Shown one piece after another: positions 1 through 7,796 of a DNA stretch of 64,000 nucleotides. The position numbers and the translations under genes were made by a program. Position 1 is the stretch's first letter. Each line of letters opens with the position of its first letter. The stretch comes from Nitrosopumilus sp. GTDB taxonomy: Archaea; Thermoproteota; Nitrososphaeria; Nitrososphaerales; Nitrosopumilaceae. A model generated the notes under the pieces. It was not told the DNA's origin and searched no databases. It saw only the letters and a program-made list of their open reading frames with translations. Where the stretch lies: NCBI GenBank assembly GCA_965206745.1, contig OZ242220.1, positions 1,376,001 to 1,440,000 on the forward strand. The letters are read 5' to 3'.

Positions 1-1932
1 GAGAGACTCGCATGGATTACGATGGGCACACCCACAGCATATGATTGCTGTTTTGGTCCAGTTAACGAAAAATTATTTGAAAAGGTGGGAATTGATTCAG
101 ATTCGGAGGTTCTCAGAAGATACTTTACGGAAATTGCAAAGGAGATTGATCACTCTGATGATCTAAACGAGGTAAGGCGTCTTGCAGTAAAGAATGCAGG
201 AATAACAGACGGACAGCTGGACAAGATGATTACTCCGCTTGAGGGAGTCTATCTGATTGCAGATCATTTGAGAACGCTGATTTTTGCAATTACTGATGGC
301 GCTTTGCCAAGCAATGTCGGTGGCGGATACAACCTCAGAATGATTCTCAGACGAATCAATGCGACAGTTGGCAAACTAGACTTGAAGGTCGACATCGATG
401 ATTTGATTGACGCACATGTTGATTATCTCAAAGACACCTATCCAGAACTTGACGAGAAGAGGGAGGATGTCAAGAAGATTCTCAAGATAGAGTCAGGCAG
501 GTATGAAGAGTCCAAAGTCCACATGAAGAAAAAGGCCGAAAAGATTCGTCAAAAGGGCGTGCCAAGTGTCGAGGAACTCATCACCCTGTACGAATCAGAC
601 GGCATCACGCCTGAATATCTCAAAGAGGTTGATGCAATTTCAGAGATTCCCTCATCATTTTATTCAAAGCTGTCTGACTTGCACCAGTCTGAAAAGAGAA
701 AGGAGATTACAAAGTTCCCGCTAGAGCAGCTGCCTGAAACTGAGGCGTTATTCTACAAAGATGACCCGATGGAGTTTGAGGCCAAGGTAATCAAGGTCTT
801 TGATGACCAGGTTGTACTAGATAGAACATCGTTTTATGCCAGGGGCGGTGGACAGGAGCCGGACTTTGGCAGCATTGCAGGGTTCAGCGTGGTTGATGTA
901 GACAAGCACGCAGGCATCATCGTTCACAAGCTTGTAGGAGGAGTGCCAAAAGAGGGAGATACAGTCTCATGTGTAGTGGATCAGACCAGACGGGCAAACA
1001 TTACCAAAAACCACACAAGCACGCACATCCTAAACACATCATCACGAAAAATTTTAGGATCATGGATTTGGCAGCATTCAGCCTTTAAGGATGCTGACCA
1101 TGCAAGATTAGACATCACACACCACTCCTCACTAACTGATGAGCAGGTAAGGCAGATTGAAGATGAGGCCAATACGATGGTCAGGGAGAACTATCCTGTA
1201 AACATAGAGTATTTTGACAGAGGTACTGCCGAGCAAAAGTACGGGTTTAGGATTTATCAAGGCGGCGTAGTCCCGGTTAAATCAGTGCGAATTGTATCAA
1301 TAGAGGACAGGGATATCGAGGCCTGCGGCGGAACGCATGTCAAGAGGACAGGTGACATTGAACTGATCAAGATTACAAAGACAAAAAGAATTCAGGACGG
1401 GGTCGTCCGACTTGAGTTTGTCTCAGGACCGACTGCATTTGATTATGTGAAACTGCAAGAAGAGAGTTCAAAGAGGCAAGCCAGAGAGCAGGTTGCAAAG
1501 CAGGCATTGGAAAGACAGAGAGAGGCAGACAAGCAGAAAGCTAAAGAACACATCCCAATACTATTGGAGAGGATTCTGTCCGGGGAATCAGGGGAATTAG
1601 ATGAAATTACAGTCAATGACAAGATCTGCTTTACTGCCAGTTCAAATTATCAGGATTATTTCCATCAAAACTTTGGCAAGAAACTAGTGGCCAAAGATGG
1701 CAAGGCTGCCTTTTGTGGAATTTTTGAGTCAGGACCAACTGTAAGGATAGTGGTGTATGCCGGAGGGGAATCAGGCGTAGATTCAGGACAGATAGCAAAG
1801 GAGATAGCCTCAATTTTAGGCGGTTCAGGCGGCGGGGATGCCAGATTTGCCCAAGGCGGTGGAAAAGACACATCTAAAAAAGACGAGGCAATAGCCAAAG
1901 CAAAATCAATGATTTTAGGATCGACACTATGA
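1..1932 (+). CDS. alaS: Alanine--tRNA ligase (5' part outside the window)
   Basis: Frame is open from base 1. Motifs ADHLRT, FYARGGGQ, editing HxxxH (NHTSTH) and ACGGTHV, plus a C-terminal GGSGGG DHHA1 domain. Confidence 0.97.
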   Translation, partial: ERLAWITMGTPTAYDCCFGPVNEKLFEKVGIDSDSEVLRRYFTEIAKEIDHSDDLNEVRRLAVKNAGITDGQLDKMITPLEGVYLIADHLRTLIFAITDGALPSNVGGGYNLRMILRRINATVGKLDLKVDIDDLIDAHVDYLKDTYPELDEKREDVKKILKIESGRYEESKVHMKKKAEKIRQKGVPSVEELITLYESDGITPEYLKEVDAISEIPSSFYSKLSDLHQSEKRKEITKFPLEQLPETEALFYKDDPMEFEAKVIKVFDDQVVLDRTSFYARGGGQEPDFGSIAGFSVVDVDKHAGIIVHKLVGGVPKEGDTVSCVVDQTRRANITKNHTSTHILNTSSRKILGSWIWQHSAFKDADHARLDITHHSSLTDEQVRQIEDEANTMVRENYPVNIEYFDRGTAEQKYGFRIYQGGVVPVKSVRIVSIEDRDIEACGGTHVKRTGDIELIKITKTKRIQDGVVRLEFVSGPTAFDYVKLQEESSKRQAREQVAKQALERQREADKQKAKEHIPILLERILSGESGELDEITVNDKICFTASSNYQDYFHQNFGKKLVAKDGKAAFCGIFESGPTVRIVVYAGGESGVDSGQIAKEIASILGGSGGGDARFAQGGGKDTSKKDEAIAKAKSMILGSTL

Positions 1933-4799
1933 CAGTTAACTGGAACAAGATAGAGACAAAATGGCAAAACAGGTGGGCCGAATCAAAAGACTTTGAGACA
2001 AATCCAAATGAAAAGCCAAAAAAATTCATCACGGTGGCATACCCGTATCCAAACTCGCCGCAACATATCGGGCACGGCAGAACATACACGCTGGCTGATG
2101 TTCACTCGAGATACTACAGAATGCAAGGGTACAACGTGCTGTTCCCAATGGGATTCCACTATACTGGAACGCCGATACTTGGAATGGCAAAAAGGATTCA
2201 GGCAGGAGAGAAGGACATTCTTGACGGGCTGCGAAACATCTACAACGTCCCAGAAGAGGACATCAAGACATTTGTTGAGCCGATAAAGATAGCAGACTAT
2301 TTTCATCAGGAGATCAAATCAGGAATGATAGAGATGGGATACTCTATTGATTGGCGCAGAGAATTTACAACCATAGTTCCAGGATATCAGAAATTTATCG
2401 AATGGCAGATTACGGTACTCAAAGAAAACAACAGGATCATTCAGGGAAGTCATCCGGTTGGATGGTGTCCCAAGGATCAAAACCCGGTATCACAGCACGA
2501 TACGATGGGGGACGTCGAGCCAAAGATTGATGATAAAAACTTCCTAGTCAAATTCAAGTTGGGCGAGTTTGTTTTCCCGGTTACAACATTAAGGCCTGAA
2601 ACAATTTTTGGAGTTACGAATTTGTGGGCCAATCCAAATACAGTTTACAAAAAGGTTGCAGTGGATGATCAGACATGGATAGTTTCTCAAGAATGTGCAC
2701 GCAAGATGGAGTTCTTTGAAAAAGAGGTTTCGATAATTGGGGATATTTCAGGAACTGAATTGGTTGGAAAGATGGCCATTCTGCCACACAAAGGTGACAA
2801 AGTTCCAGTCTTGCCAGCTGATTTTGTAGAGCCTGGCATGGGCACAGGATTGGTAATGTCAGTTCCGGCTCATGCTCCAAAAGACTACCAGGCGCTGATG
2901 GATTTGAAGGCGGCAAACCACGAATTGGCCTCAAAGATTGAGCCTGTACCCATCATGGTCACTCAGGGATATGATGCCATTCCAGCAAGACAGATTTGTC
3001 AAAGACTAGGGGTATCAGACCAGTCTGATTCCAAATTAGAAGAGGCCACAAAGGAGCTGTATCTCAAAGAGTTCACAGATGGAAGACTAAATGAAAGATG
3101 TGGCAAGTTCAGCAACGAGAAAGTCCAGTTTGGACGGGACAAGGTAAGGGCGTGGCTGGAGGAGGGAGGTCATTTGGAGAAATTCCCAGTGCTTGAGAAC
3201 GCTCCAGTGCATTGTCGTTGTGGGGCAGAGTGTGTTGTCAAAATATTGAACAATCAATGGTTCCTCAATTATGGGGATAAAGAGTGGAAAGAACTAGCTC
3301 GCAACTGTTTTGATGGGATGAACATCCTGCCAAATAACATCAAGACAGAGTTCAAAGAGGTAATTGATTGGCTGCATGAGCGGGCTTGCGCAAGACAGCA
3401 AGGATTGGGAACCAAGCTGCCTTGGGACAAGGATTGGATTGTGGAGTCACTTTCTGATAGCGTGATTTACATGGCATACTATACTATTTCACGATTTGTA
3501 AATGATGGAACTGTACAGCCTGAGAATCTTACCAAAGAGTTCTTTGATTATGTTTTGCTAGACAAGGGAGACGTGTCATCGGCTGCAAAGACCTGCAAAC
3601 TTTCTGAGGAGATCATCAGTACGATGAAGAAGGAATTTGCTTACTTTTATCCAGTTGATTCAAGGCATTCAGGCAGGGATTTGGTGCAGAATCACTTGTC
3701 ATTTTTTGTTCTAAACCACGTTGCAATATTTGATAAAAAATTGTGGCCACGGGAAATTGTAGTTAACGGGAGTGTGATGATGGACGGTGCCAAGATGAGC
3801 AAGAGCATGGGAAATATCATACCCTTGCGTACTGCAATCAGAGACCATGGTGCAGACCCCATCAGATTGGCAATCATCTCATCAGCTGAACTGCTCCAAG
3901 ATGCCGATTTTAACATGGAATCAGTGTTTGGAATTCAAAACAAGTTAGAGTCTCTGTTAGAGGAGTGCTCTAGGCTCAAAAAAAGCCCAATATCCAGACT
4001 GCAGGCAGAGGACAGATGGATTTTGTCTAAAACCCAGAACAAGATATCTGAAATCACAAAGGCAGTGGAGAAGATGAGATTACGCGAGGCACTGCATGAT
4101 ATTTTGTTCACGTTTGAGTCGGATTTGAGCTGGTATGTAAAAAGAACACAGGCCAAAGGAAGAGATGACATCTCAGGGATACTATACCAGATAAACTCGG
4201 CTCGTGTTGCAATGCTGTCTCCATTTGCACCGCACATAGCTGAGGAGATGTGGGAGAGGATTGGGGGAACCGGTTTGGTCTCAAAATCACAGTGGCCGCA
4301 GTATTCCATAAAAGATGTTGATGCCGCATCAATCCAATCCGAGGAGCTACTCAAATCAACCATAGGGGATATTGCAAAGATTCTCAAGGTAACCAAGATG
4401 ACTCCGCAGAAAATTATAGTTTATGTTAATTCTGATGAATTAAAATCAACAGTGTATCGCAAGATACTTGGCATGATGGTGGGTGGCCAGAACAACATGG
4501 GGGTCATAATGAAGGAGATCATTGCAGATCCTCAGACTGCAGAGGCCAAGAAAATGCCAGACTATGTACAGAAAGTAATCAAGGATTTGCATTCAGAGTC
4601 TGAGGATATCAAAACCATGAAATTAGAAGTAAAAGAGTTTGATGAAAAAGAATTTCTCTCCAGGGAATTGCCTGCAATTGGCAAGAAAGAGTTTGGCGTA
4701 GAGATTTCAGTGTATTCTGAATCAGATAAAGACATCTATGATCCAAAAGGAAAAGCTAGGCATGCAAGACCGTTCAAACCGGGAATTTTAGTAGAATAG
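1929..4799 (+). CDS. leuS: Leucine--tRNA ligase (archaeal type)
   Basis: HIGH and KMSKS motifs, CP1 editing TTLRPET and GTG motifs. ATGA overlap with the alaS stop. Confidence 0.97.
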   Translation: MTVNWNKIETKWQNRWAESKDFETNPNEKPKKFITVAYPYPNSPQHIGHGRTYTLADVHSRYYRMQGYNVLFPMGFHYTGTPILGMAKRIQAGEKDILDGLRNIYNVPEEDIKTFVEPIKIADYFHQEIKSGMIEMGYSIDWRREFTTIVPGYQKFIEWQITVLKENNRIIQGSHPVGWCPKDQNPVSQHDTMGDVEPKIDDKNFLVKFKLGEFVFPVTTLRPETIFGVTNLWANPNTVYKKVAVDDQTWIVSQECARKMEFFEKEVSIIGDISGTELVGKMAILPHKGDKVPVLPADFVEPGMGTGLVMSVPAHAPKDYQALMDLKAANHELASKIEPVPIMVTQGYDAIPARQICQRLGVSDQSDSKLEEATKELYLKEFTDGRLNERCGKFSNEKVQFGRDKVRAWLEEGGHLEKFPVLENAPVHCRCGAECVVKILNNQWFLNYGDKEWKELARNCFDGMNILPNNIKTEFKEVIDWLHERACARQQGLGTKLPWDKDWIVESLSDSVIYMAYYTISRFVNDGTVQPENLTKEFFDYVLLDKGDVSSAAKTCKLSEEIISTMKKEFAYFYPVDSRHSGRDLVQNHLSFFVLNHVAIFDKKLWPREIVVNGSVMMDGAKMSKSMGNIIPLRTAIRDHGADPIRLAIISSAELLQDADFNMESVFGIQNKLESLLEECSRLKKSPISRLQAEDRWILSKTQNKISEITKAVEKMRLREALHDILFTFESDLSWYVKRTQAKGRDDISGILYQINSARVAMLSPFAPHIAEEMWERIGGTGLVSKSQWPQYSIKDVDAASIQSEELLKSTIGDIAKILKVTKMTPQKIIVYVNSDELKSTVYRKILGMMVGGQNNMGVIMKEIIADPQTAEAKKMPDYVQKVIKDLHSESEDIKTMKLEVKEFDEKEFLSRELPAIGKKEFGVEISVYSESDKDIYDPKGKARHARPFKPGILVE

Positions 4800-5306
4800 G
4801 ACTCGGGTCACAAAGGATAATCATTGTTCTTGATCAGAGCAGCCAGATGTAAAACAAGGCAGTCATCTGTGTCTGAGAGTATTATCAACTTGAGAAGATC
4901 GGAAGGCAAAGAGAACACTAATCGAAATGATCACCAAAAGAACAGTTCAAATCAAAAACAATATCCTAGGTACATTGTTGAAAATATTCGTGCCTAGTTT
5001 TTTCAGTAGCTAACCTCAGATAGGATATAGATATTCAATATTTGATTAAATCTCAAATGACCCGCACCTAGAAATCATCTAGATTTCACTCATCCACATC
5101 AGATCCTCTTGATCAATGAATTGCACGTAACTGTGACAAATCTCCAATTTGTTGATTGAAGAGAACAGGTAAAGAACAATCAAGTCCGTCAGCAACTTAC
5201 TGTTCAAGAGTCATCTTGTATGCATTATCAATTCCTTTACAGCACGTCTTGGTGGCATCAAATGTATCGATAAAAAAATTGAGAGTCTCAGTAAATGTAA
5301 TGGGAT

Positions 5307-5451
5307 AAAAAAAGGCATGTGAGCTTAAGATCAACTCCAAAAGGACGTTGATGACAGCTCCTCACTTAAGATCAGTAACTGGACGTTATCTGATGAAAGC
5401 GATGTCTTAAGGCTTGAAACTGTTTGTAATCAAACGAAAGACTGCCTCTTC
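5307..5451 (-). ncRNA. Candidate structured ncRNA with three 41-nt-period hairpin modules
   Basis: TTAAATA at 5479-5473 (minus), T7 tract at 5313-5307, terminal stem 5451-5443/5317-5309, and three CUKUC-[23-24 nt hairpin]-CUUAAG modules. No long ORF. Confidence 0.55.
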
Positions 5452-5566
5452 AAACACATTATCCATATTTGATATTTAACTAATACTACTTTTTCATACT
5501 AGCAAAAAATATCAGAGTAAATTTCCAGATAGTGTATTTATTAGGCGTGAATGTTCGCAGAACATC

Positions 5567-6580
5567 TTGAAGATAGCAGTGATGGGAATGGGCGTGGCAG
5601 GATCTTATCTTATGGCCAGATTAAAGAACTCCGAACACAAAGTTGTCGGGTATGAAAGAATGGTTGAAGAGAAGCACGATTCCATTTGCGCATGGGGCAC
5701 AATAAAACCGATTTTAGCAGAGTTTTGTAAAAAGACTGGAAGGGATTTTGACGACTTTTTGATTCATGATGGCAAAAATATGCACGTCAAAATGAATAAT
5801 GATGTAAAATTTGACATCGGGCTAAAGGGACTATGCACGTATGACAAACTAGCGCTGATCAAAGATTTCATCAAGGACTCCGAGGTCGTCTATGGTACTC
5901 CGCCATCAAAAGAGGAACTAGAAAGAGAGTACGACATGATTGTTGATTGTACAGGATTTGGCAGGGCATACTTGCCAAAATTACAGGAGGACTTTTTTTT
6001 ACCAACATACGAATACAAGATAGAGTACGAAGACAAGGTACCGTATGATGACTTTTACATCGAACCGTTTCCCGGCATGTCAGGCTACTTTTGGTATTTC
6101 CCACTAGGCAAAAAATGGGCACATGTCGGAGCAGGCGACTACAACAAGCAACACATGAAGGCAACAGACGAGTTTCTAAAAAAACACGGGGGCAAAGTCA
6201 TCCAGACAAAGGGACGCCCAATCAGATTAGCAACGCCAGACAGATGCAAACCCTACTACTCAGGAAAGGTGGTAGGGGTAGGAGAATCTATAGGAACCGT
6301 TTATGCGTTGCTAGGCGAGGGGATCATCCCATCAATGCAGTGTGTCGAGATATTTTTGGAGAACATGAACGATTTCAAAGCGTATGAAAAGGCAGTAGAA
6401 AAACATTACAAGGTATATGCCAAGGTCTTTAACTTTGTTCGGGCTAAAATCCACAAAGATTTCAATTTCTTCAAAGCGTTGCCAGATTTTATTGCGATAT
6501 TCCGATACATGAAAAAGCATGAAGACAGATTTGGAATGAACATCAAGATTGCAGATCTGATCAAAGTTGCAAAGGCCTAA
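5567..6580 (+). CDS. FAD-dependent oxidoreductase, geranylgeranyl reductase-like
   Basis: N-terminal GxGxxG Rossmann motif (MGMGVAG), GYFWYFP and GE...GEGI motifs typical of the GGR family. Confidence 0.8.
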   Translation: MKIAVMGMGVAGSYLMARLKNSEHKVVGYERMVEEKHDSICAWGTIKPILAEFCKKTGRDFDDFLIHDGKNMHVKMNNDVKFDIGLKGLCTYDKLALIKDFIKDSEVVYGTPPSKEELEREYDMIVDCTGFGRAYLPKLQEDFFLPTYEYKIEYEDKVPYDDFYIEPFPGMSGYFWYFPLGKKWAHVGAGDYNKQHMKATDEFLKKHGGKVIQTKGRPIRLATPDRCKPYYSGKVVGVGESIGTVYALLGEGIIPSMQCVEIFLENMNDFKAYEKAVEKHYKVYAKVFNFVRAKIHKDFNFFKALPDFIAIFRYMKKHEDRFGMNIKIADLIKVAKA

Positions 6581-7679: not shown

Positions 7680-7767
7680 AGCCCGATAGTCTAGTGGTCA
7701 AGGATTCTGCCCTCTGGATCTCAAGAGTGGATAGGCGGAGACGGCAGTTCGAATCTGCCTCGGGCTA
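7680..7767 (+). tRNA. tRNA-Gln(CUG) with a 15-nt anticodon-loop intron (~7718-7732)
   Basis: Acceptor AGCCCGA/TCGGGCT (A1-U72), T arm GGCAG-TTCGAAT-CTGCC, anticodon stem CTGCC/GGCGG with CTG at 7714-7716. Confidence 0.92.
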
Positions 7768-7796
7768 CTGGTAAAATATCAACAATTTTGCGAGTC

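Follow-up and report, generated by a model that had tools for sequence, protein, structure and literature searches.

Comparative evidence for a new modular small RNA family in Nitrosopumilaceae

Introduction

Several described classes of small RNA are built from repeated hairpins. Archaeal H/ACA small RNAs (sRNAs) contain one to three copies of a protein-binding hairpin unit with an internal loop, and the bacterial CsrB and RsmZ sponges present several short conserved motifs on hairpins with little other single-stranded sequence. Tandem hairpin aptamers also exist, for example the NAD+-I and guanidine-II classes. Here we describe a predicted small RNA gene of Nitrosopumilus sp., which lies on the minus strand of a 64,000-nucleotide (nt) stretch of contig OZ242220.1 (assembly GCA_965206745.1, positions 1,376,001 to 1,440,000). 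This stretch is called the window below, and positions refer to it. The RNA carries three copies of one hairpin module. It is a modular small RNA with repeated recognition hairpins, for which multi-hairpin H/ACA RNAs and CsrB/RsmZ are precedents, although it lacks the defining features of the former and does not clearly show those of the latter.

In the ocean, ammonia-oxidising archaea drive nitrification and rank among the most abundant cells. Our literature searches yielded almost nothing on regulatory RNAs of these organisms, and among open-access papers (without their supplements) on the non-coding RNA of Nitrosopumilus and Thaumarchaeota they listed none that describes this RNA. Mapping of transcription start sites on Thaumarchaeota contigs has been reported (PMC5069720), and the main text of that report includes no such RNA.

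A predicted structured RNA on the minus strand

Sequence analyses revealed a regular repeat at this locus. CTTAAG occurs at 5324, 5365 and 5406, an exact 41-nt period, and GACAG or GAAAG occurs at 5353, 5395 and 5436. The triple CTTAAG with this period is present once in the window and was not produced by any of 100 dinucleotide-preserving shuffles. RNAfold predicted a four-way junction for the minus strand, composed of a 9-base-pair (bp) closing stem and three hairpins, with a folding energy of -49.9 kcal/mol (z = -5.75); none of 200 shuffles was equally stable. The plus strand gave a different and weaker fold (z = -2.12).

The fold is conserved in relatives. BLAST of 5290-5480 matched 18 of 24 genomes of the same genus (E <= 1.3e-4), with 71-82% identity in the full-length matches, and found none among 16 genomes from other families of the order, where the best match was short and reached E = 0.0055. 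RNAalifold on a MAFFT alignment of 18 orthologues returned the same three hairpins, with 39 pairs. Fifteen of the 39 pairs had changes on both sides, that is, compensatory changes, as against 1-6 when the 3' partners were shifted by 1-3 columns, and 97.1% of the cells were paired as against 27-40%; this slid control is somewhat generous, since the structure was derived from these very sequences. None of 500 column shuffles matched the observed pairing values. The closing stem also keeps its pairing with altered inner positions, as in GGUGA/UUACC, GACAA/UUGUC and UACAAGACC/GGUUUUGUG. Across orthologues, compensating closing stems are GAAAAGGUGA with UUACCUUUUC or UCGCCUUUUC, and GAAAAGACAA/UUGUCUUUUC; further examples are GAAGAGGCA/UGCCUUUUU, UACAAGACC/GGUUUUGUG and UAAGAAAGG/CUUUUCUUA.

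Pairing also reveals the strand. Among 1680 paired cells (the 12 best-defined pairs in the 140 modules described below), G.U or U.G occurred 107 times and A.C or C.A 18 times, a balance that would be reversed on the plus strand. Because of this bias, together with a TATA box upstream and a U-tract downstream, minus is the RNA strand. R1, the covariance model of the whole RNA, matches 5307-5458 with 153.6 bits. It is highly probable that 5455-5307 of the minus strand is a functional RNA gene, and a new structured RNA family is well supported by the comparative evidence.

An earlier note on this DNA, made from the letters of the sequence, had listed both sets of repeats, three insert pairings, a 9-bp enclosing stem (5451-5443 with 5317-5309), a TATA-type box upstream, a T7 tract at the end and a preference of G-U pairs for the minus strand. 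The repeats and the coordinates of the box and the tract were confirmed on the sequence, the insert pairings and the enclosing stem are those of the RNAfold structure, and the strand preference is borne out by the counts above. The note had also named covariation in Nitrosopumilaceae relatives as a check, and it was found. Its proposal of a self-contained minus-strand structured RNA of ~145 nt with three module copies is therefore supported by conservation, covariation, G.U bias, promoter and U-tract. The three copies hold for this locus, but the module is not confined to it, and a wider family of one-, two- and three-module RNAs had been missed.

The hairpin module

The module of ~44 nt consists of an outer stem, an asymmetric internal loop (5' NUC, 3' CUUA), an inner stem and a loop. 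We aligned 140 distinct modules, taken from 37 three-module RNAs (units 1-3) and 2 two-module RNAs and supplemented by 27 single modules, after leaving out two rows as mis-extractions. Scored as an outer stem of 7 bp, a 3x4 loop and an inner stem of 5+2 bp, 87.8% of the module cells were paired as against 24-39% in the slid control. The covariation score was 0.586 as against 0.06-0.12, and none of 500 shuffles reached 0.586. Pairing is poorly maintained at the two outermost positions of the outer stem (70 and 78 unpaired cells). Constraint is strongest around the internal loop: the closing pair of the outer stem is U-A in all 140 modules, the 3' loop is CUUA in 136, the 5' loop is NUC in all 140 (GUC 118, CUC 12, UUC 7, AUC 3), and the closing pair of the inner stem is purine-pyrimidine in 138. 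The 44-nt module is the evolutionary unit.

Within the three-module RNA, units 1, 2 and 3 each resemble their own orthologues and not one another, and they are joined by linkers of 1-4 nt. Such short linkers, together with the exact 41-nt periodicity in the window and the existence of the module as separate single-hairpin RNAs at other loci, would also suit a precursor that is cut by an endoribonuclease into hairpin RNAs of ~41 nt, with the module as processing signal and the products acting singly, in the manner of type III antitoxin or CRISPR-like arrays. However, the covarying closing stem around the three units argues for an intact four-way junction, and the units, each similar to its own orthologues, are not interchangeable. 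Moreover, the adjacent genes encode a GGR-family oxidoreductase and a nitroreductase, and neither a nuclease gene nor a cas gene is adjacent. We consider this kind of processing quite unlikely.

RNAs with one, two and three modules

Besides full-length copies in relatives, the R1 model gave many weaker matches (E 1e-7 to 1e-3) at other loci. On inspection, each of them contains one copy of the hairpin, e.g. UGGAGCUGUCACCAAGUAACUAAUCGUUGUUGGUCUUAAGUUCCA. Two classes of single-module RNA were distinguished. In class A, a conserved promoter block (..TCATCAGTAnGATCTAAATAC) is followed after ~25 nt by the module, and a U-tract or a second hairpin comes next. In class B the module lies within an extended stem, CAAAGCA/UGCCUUUG, followed by a U-tract, and the locus is syntenic across the 14-15 loci retrieved; no small open reading frame (ORF) was found upstream of class B modules. 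Single-module RNAs precede unrelated genes or converge on their neighbours. Two-module RNAs were also observed, one of them inside a closing stem (L061) and the other with two near-identical tandem copies that stem from a recent duplication (L060).

In the window's genome, R2, the model of the single module, gave only three matches at E <= 1: module 2 (34.8 bits), module 3 (49.5 bits) and one single-module RNA. The last is of class A, lies on the minus strand at G000:C1:412504-412548 and scores 42 bits. Strict motif patterns had revealed no further module in this genome, and the covariance model then found this one; the class A promoter motif likewise occurs in just one copy there. This second RNA comprises a promoter block GCGTAGAATTCATCAGTATGATCTAAATAC, a small 5' hairpin, one module (loop CUC/CUCA) and a U7 tract. 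A DUF72-like gene, named by sequence reading with no family scan, follows 59 nt downstream of it, and uracil-DNA-glycosylase-like and nitroreductase-like genes, likewise named by sequence reading, lie upstream.

Further loci are recorded here as separate observations. At G000:C1:1201900-1202650, which is syntenic with the class B locus of relatives, the module is absent, and the neighbouring gene of 115-136 amino acids, which has no Pfam family and weak similarity to RNase HI (E = 0.012), is broken by stops; in this single case, module and neighbour appear to have been lost together. Across genera, the distribution of this gene differs from that of the module. In two loci of related genomes, L096 (3170-3375) and L097 (3180-3403), a class A RNA lies antisense over the 3' end of a gene of 63-69 amino acids that looks AbrB-like by eye and has no Pfam match, and the RNA may form a cis-antisense pairing with it. 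Finally, G000:C1:~116930-117260 is a 340-bp duplicate of window ~5006-5338 with 83% identity, which contains the 3' half of module 3, the U-tract and a nitroreductase remnant. Because the duplicate holds the remnant, the segment was already degraded when it was copied, and only a truncated piece of the RNA was included.

Taxonomic range of the family

The ranges given here rest on samples, so that absence refers to the genomes searched; three genomes (G117, G132 and G133) count only in the denominators. In 151 sampled Nitrosopumilaceae genomes, the window's included, R1 matched 60 at E <= 0.01, representing 13 of 27 genera; 20 of the 151 had a three-module match of at least 62 bits. In a sample of the class, also of 151 genomes with the window's included, R2 matched 54 of the 80 Nitrosopumilaceae genomes besides the window's own, whereas none of 70 genomes representing 11 other families gave a match. 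The number of R2 matches in a positive genome was 1-11, and two complete genomes of the same genus (G002 and G018) had zero. An exact pattern of the tandem modules, searched over one genome per species in 185,579 species, identified 37 stretches. Thirty-six of them, each a full-length R1 match (114-169 bits), are titled Nitrosopumilus, Nitrosopumilaceae, Nitrosarchaeum, Nitrosopumilales, MGI or Thaumarchaeota. The 37th, from a Succinivibrio metagenome-assembled genome, is G+C-rich, has no R1 match and looks like a chance match. In this search the three-module RNA was seen in Nitrosopumilaceae only.

The presence of 1-11 modules per positive genome, in varied contexts and without a constant gene partner, resembles the distribution of small ribozymes. 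The loop could then be a structural or catalytic motif that works independently of protein, either docking another RNA in the manner of a receptor or cleaving itself. The CUUAAG strand is also loosely similar to the CCUAAG strand of the 11-nt tetraloop receptor. However, the NUC strand does not have the A needed by that receptor, and conserved GNRA loops are not present. To our knowledge, no natural self-cleaving ribozyme has a core as small as a 3x4-nt loop. A role of this kind is thus very unlikely.

The repeats might instead act at the DNA level, as a palindromic repeat, a protein-binding DNA site or a remnant of a mobile element. CTTAAG is palindromic and the hairpins are imperfect inverted repeats; by sequence reading, single-module loci lie beside small AbrB-like or methyltransferase-like genes in two genomes of one related genus, and the 340-bp piece with half of module 3 has been duplicated elsewhere in the genome. 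Nevertheless, the strand-specific excess of G.U over A.C is as expected of RNA, and the compensatory changes preserve pairing, not sequence. The three-module locus is also syntenic, with a GGR-family gene upstream in 53 of 59 cases. IMG/VR gave 95 matches to the single-module pattern, and of the 80 that were scored, 2 were marginal at 25 bits. With no convincing copy among these 80, a viral origin was rejected. Of all the alternatives weighed here, a DNA-level element is the least probable and can be given hardly any weight.

Gene boundaries and neighbouring genes

The elements of the RNA gene and the flanking genes are listed in Table 1. The TATA spacing was used to predict the 5' end of the gene, and the U-tract to predict its 3' end.

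Table 1. Predicted RNA gene, its elements and the flanking genes in the window
Feature	Position	Strand	Description
Predicted small RNA gene, ~145-150 nt (~147)	5307..5455	minus	Closing stem, three hairpin modules and U-tract
Upstream element TAGTATGAAAAAGTAGTA, consensus TAGTAGGAAAAAGTAGTG	5484..5501	minus	Conserved block in alignment, between the promoters of the RNA and of the divergent GGR-family gene; possible regulator site
TATA box GTTAAATAT	5480-5472	minus	Upstream of the closing stem, with 20 nt from its end to the first stem base
Closing stem, 5' strand GAAGAGGCA	5451-5443	minus	Pairs with 5317-5309; 9 bp, two G.U
Module 1	5442-5404	minus	Outer stem GUCUU/AAGAC; loop UC/CUU(A); inner stem GUUUGA/UCAAGC; conserved apical UUACAAACAGUUU
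Module 2	5402-5362	minus	Outer stem UCGCUU/AAGUGA; loop UC/CUU; inner stem AUCAG(A)UAAC/GUUACUGAU
Module 3	5360-5321	minus	Outer stem GAGCU/AGCUC; loop GUC/CUUA; inner stem AUCAAC(G)UCC/GGAGUUGAU
Closing stem, 3' strand UGCCUUUUU	5317-5309 (element 5307..5317)	minus	Runs into U7 tract 5313-5307
Nitroreductase remnant	5100-5271	minus	Directly downstream of the RNA; start-equivalent ATC (5271-5269), stop after 24 codons (5199-5197), frameshifted NWRFVTVT near 5164-5102
leuS	1929-4799	plus	
GGR-family flavin adenine dinucleotide (FAD) oxidoreductase	5567-6580	plus	Divergent from the RNA

The 20 nt from TATA box to closing stem correspond to the usual archaeal distance between this box and the start site. 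The TATA block is kept in 19 aligned homologous loci, with variants only in L024 and L025, and the alignment of homologous loci has the conserved upstream arrangement TAGTAGGAAAAAGTAGTG-N-GTTAAATAT. On the minus strand the linkers are one A between modules 1 and 2 and one G between modules 2 and 3, and ACA follows module 3. The U7 tract is likely an archaeal terminator. The U-rich 3' strand is kept in orthologues, many of which end in only CCUUUUC.

The RNA sits between leuS and a GGR-family gene. This GGR-family gene lies upstream on the opposite strand in 53 of 59 distinct three-module loci, and two of the remaining six are truncated. In 46 of the 59 loci the RNA is followed, on its own strand, by a nitroreductase-family gene (PF00881); this gene encodes 200 amino acids when intact, starts 24-43 nt past the end of the RNA match and has its own conserved TATA-like block ATTAAATTTGG, 16-19 nt before the ATG. 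In the other 13 loci, including the window, the RNA is present without this gene. Since the RNA is intact in the window, where only a remnant of the gene is left, the RNA does not depend on the nitroreductase.

This arrangement bears on the main rival of a protein-docking function, in which the modules are tandem aptamers for a small molecule or ion and the loops, as in a riboswitch, bind the ligand and control read-through of a weak U-tract into the nitroreductase gene. The gene starts 24-43 nt downstream on the same strand in 46 of 59 loci, many orthologues have the short U-tract CCUUUUC only, and invariant loop nucleotides within covarying helices mark aptamers too. Nevertheless, the nitroreductase gene carries its own TATA-like block, and the RNA is kept at the 13 loci where the gene is lost or degraded. 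In addition, single-module RNAs have varied neighbours, either unrelated genes or convergent ones, and no expression platform with alternative pairing is visible. Ligand sensing is thus unlikely, although it ranks as the main rival.

Two features of the surrounding sequence should be added. Window 5481-5566 is a short bidirectional promoter region common to the RNA and the divergent GGR-family gene; a conserved block TAGTAKGAAAAAGTAGT sits between the two TATA-like boxes and may be a site for a common regulator. ARAGORN also found a tRNA-Gln(CTG) of 89 nt at 7680-7768 on the plus strand, with the anticodon at position 28. Since this length exceeds that of a standard tRNA, the gene may contain an intron, or its predicted bounds may be wrong.

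Proposed function

We propose that the three-module RNA is a trivalent docking platform or decoy for a candidate RNA-binding protein, a reading to which we give a probability of roughly 0.45. The evidence for protein docking is the invariant loop nucleotides in covarying helices, the unvarying U-A pair, the multiple sites and the absence of a single-stranded seed. The seven loop bases and the adjoining U-A pair are the most constrained part of the module, whereas the helices are free to vary if paired, which argues for a specific recognition site. The RNA is almost wholly helical with linkers of 1-4 nt, and thus it offers no base-pairing seed. We arrive at the trivalent reading because the site is repeated on three arms of a junction and seed sequence is missing. 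In this model a single protein copy, or a single subunit of an oligomer, would dock sequence-specifically on each invariant loop. The three-module RNA would assemble or hold three copies of its partner, as a scaffold or a storage particle, and would not act as a base-pairing guide. Alternatively, it might be a decoy that titrates the partner away from single-module RNAs.

Several observations weigh against this proposal. A partner protein was not found, in a search in which one conserved neighbour was compared with the distribution of the module. This neighbour, 'ORF ii', was rejected as the partner because 22 of 27 genera have it, some of them with no module; with module matches in 13 of 27, the two do not track each other. 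ORF ii has no Pfam match and a weak match to RNase HI (E = 0.012) that is below the cut-off. The loop matches no protein-binding RNA motif that we could name, and there is no tandem G.A as in a K-turn. A decoy has no visible targets either, as no R2 match at E <= 1 lies in the mRNA leaders of this genome. Nor did public sequencing runs show a transcript: the sole possible RNA run, which is unlabelled and guessed to be RNA, gave a single contig of low depth that spans just 5411-5579, and this contig is uninformative on expression, while DNA runs cover the whole region. The closing stem is also less supported than the hairpins, since the mean best stem was 8.05 bp as against 7.43 bp with flanks from mixed species (5.07 bp with shuffled flanks). 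A purine-rich strand pairs readily with any U-tract, so part of the closing-stem pairing follows from composition. Because the mixed-species control nearly equals the real pairs, the four-way junction rests mainly on the individual compensatory cases.

The docking proposal can be extended to the whole family, in a form that we regard as doubtful. The NUC/CUUA hairpin might be the RNA handle of a ribonucleoprotein specific to Nitrosopumilaceae, in which single-module RNAs would be the working RNAs and the three-module RNA, as trivalent platform or decoy, would control how much of the protein is available. If this is true, the system would be an archaeal counterpart of global regulators of the CsrB and 6S type and the first in ammonia-oxidising archaea. 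If the partner is a global regulator, its identification would open post-transcriptional control in these organisms to experiment. What the locus provides is a well-supported new RNA family: covariation is clear, the minimal module is defined, and the range is narrow, within a single family of archaea. The conserved loop is a ready-made bait for a partner search. Furthermore, the forms with one, two and three modules illustrate the growth of a modular RNA through duplication of a hairpin that would bind a protein or ligand.

Comparison with known RNA classes

The RNA family is new and is absent from Rfam 15. Rfam 15 cmscan with permissive filters on 4700-5700, both strands, at E <= 10, revealed no family that matches the RNA. 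Of five rows returned, the sole overlap with the RNA was sR9 on the plus strand (5321-5371), with 14.5 bits as against a gathering threshold of 36 and E = 9.6, and one H/ACA row, at 4877-4996, lies outside the RNA. ARAGORN placed three tRNAs in the window, and the interval 5300-5460 contained neither a tRNA nor a tmRNA; this negative result and arms of ~40 nt exclude a tRNA-like cloverleaf. The earlier note had presented the RNA as a novel candidate and had not recognised it as SRP, RNase P, 5S or tRNA, in agreement with these results. Of the roles that it had considered, an H/ACA-like RNA, a processed guide mini-array and a repeat-type antitoxin did not hold, for the reasons given below for each class. 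Its suggestion of protein binding or a protein sponge is still the best candidate role.

Archaeal H/ACA sRNAs are similar to this RNA in domain of life and in having one to three copies of a hairpin unit with an internal loop. However, a variable guide pocket is not present: the 3x4-nt loop (CUUA in 136 of 140 modules, NUC in 140 of 140) is too small and too invariant to be one. A K-turn or K-loop was also rejected, as there are no conserved G.A/A.G positions, no tandem G.A, and the upper stems are Watson-Crick and covarying. The earlier note had pointed to ACA after units 1 and 3. This is true of the window, but among the 18 orthologues ACA follows unit 3 in only 2. Box C/D RNAs do not fit either. 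The CUGAU of the minus strand lies inside the inner stems and covaries (CUGAU, UUGAU, CUGGU, UUGGU), and UGAUGA is found only on the plus strand, which is disfavoured by the G.U count (107 vs 18). The loop was also inspected against consensus motifs, and readings as a K-turn, an 11-nt receptor, a UAA/GAN motif or a bulge-helix-bulge (BHB) loop did not fit.

Type III antitoxin RNAs of the ToxI kind have the same layout of promoter, short tandem repeats, terminator and same-strand gene. In contrast to ToxI, the units here are not near-identical and share just the loop motif. The gene downstream encodes a nitroreductase-family protein and not an endoribonuclease of the ToxN/AbiQ type; it is preceded by a promoter-like block of its own, is reduced to a remnant in the window and is missing from 13 of 59 loci. 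A CRISPR-like or other guide array was rejected because the would-be inserts are conserved across species and form covarying base pairs; the neighbours are leuS, the GGR-family gene and the nitroreductase, although no search was aimed at cas genes. NAD+-I (nadA motif) and guanidine-II (mini-ykkC) riboswitches resemble the RNA in their repeated small stem-loops, invariant loop nucleotides and covarying stems. Unlike them, it is a stand-alone gene with a promoter and U-tract, and single modules have no consistent downstream gene; no riboswitch model was matched in the Rfam cmscan.

CsrB and RsmZ differ from the RNA in that their motif is a GGA in an apical loop, whereas here it lies in an internal loop. 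The RNA has only three sites and an archaeal host, and no matching operator hairpins were found in the mRNA leaders of this genome at E <= 1. What it shares with these sponges is the display of several short conserved motifs on hairpins with little other single-stranded sequence. By analogy, their multivalent binding and titration may be the mechanism of the three-module RNA.

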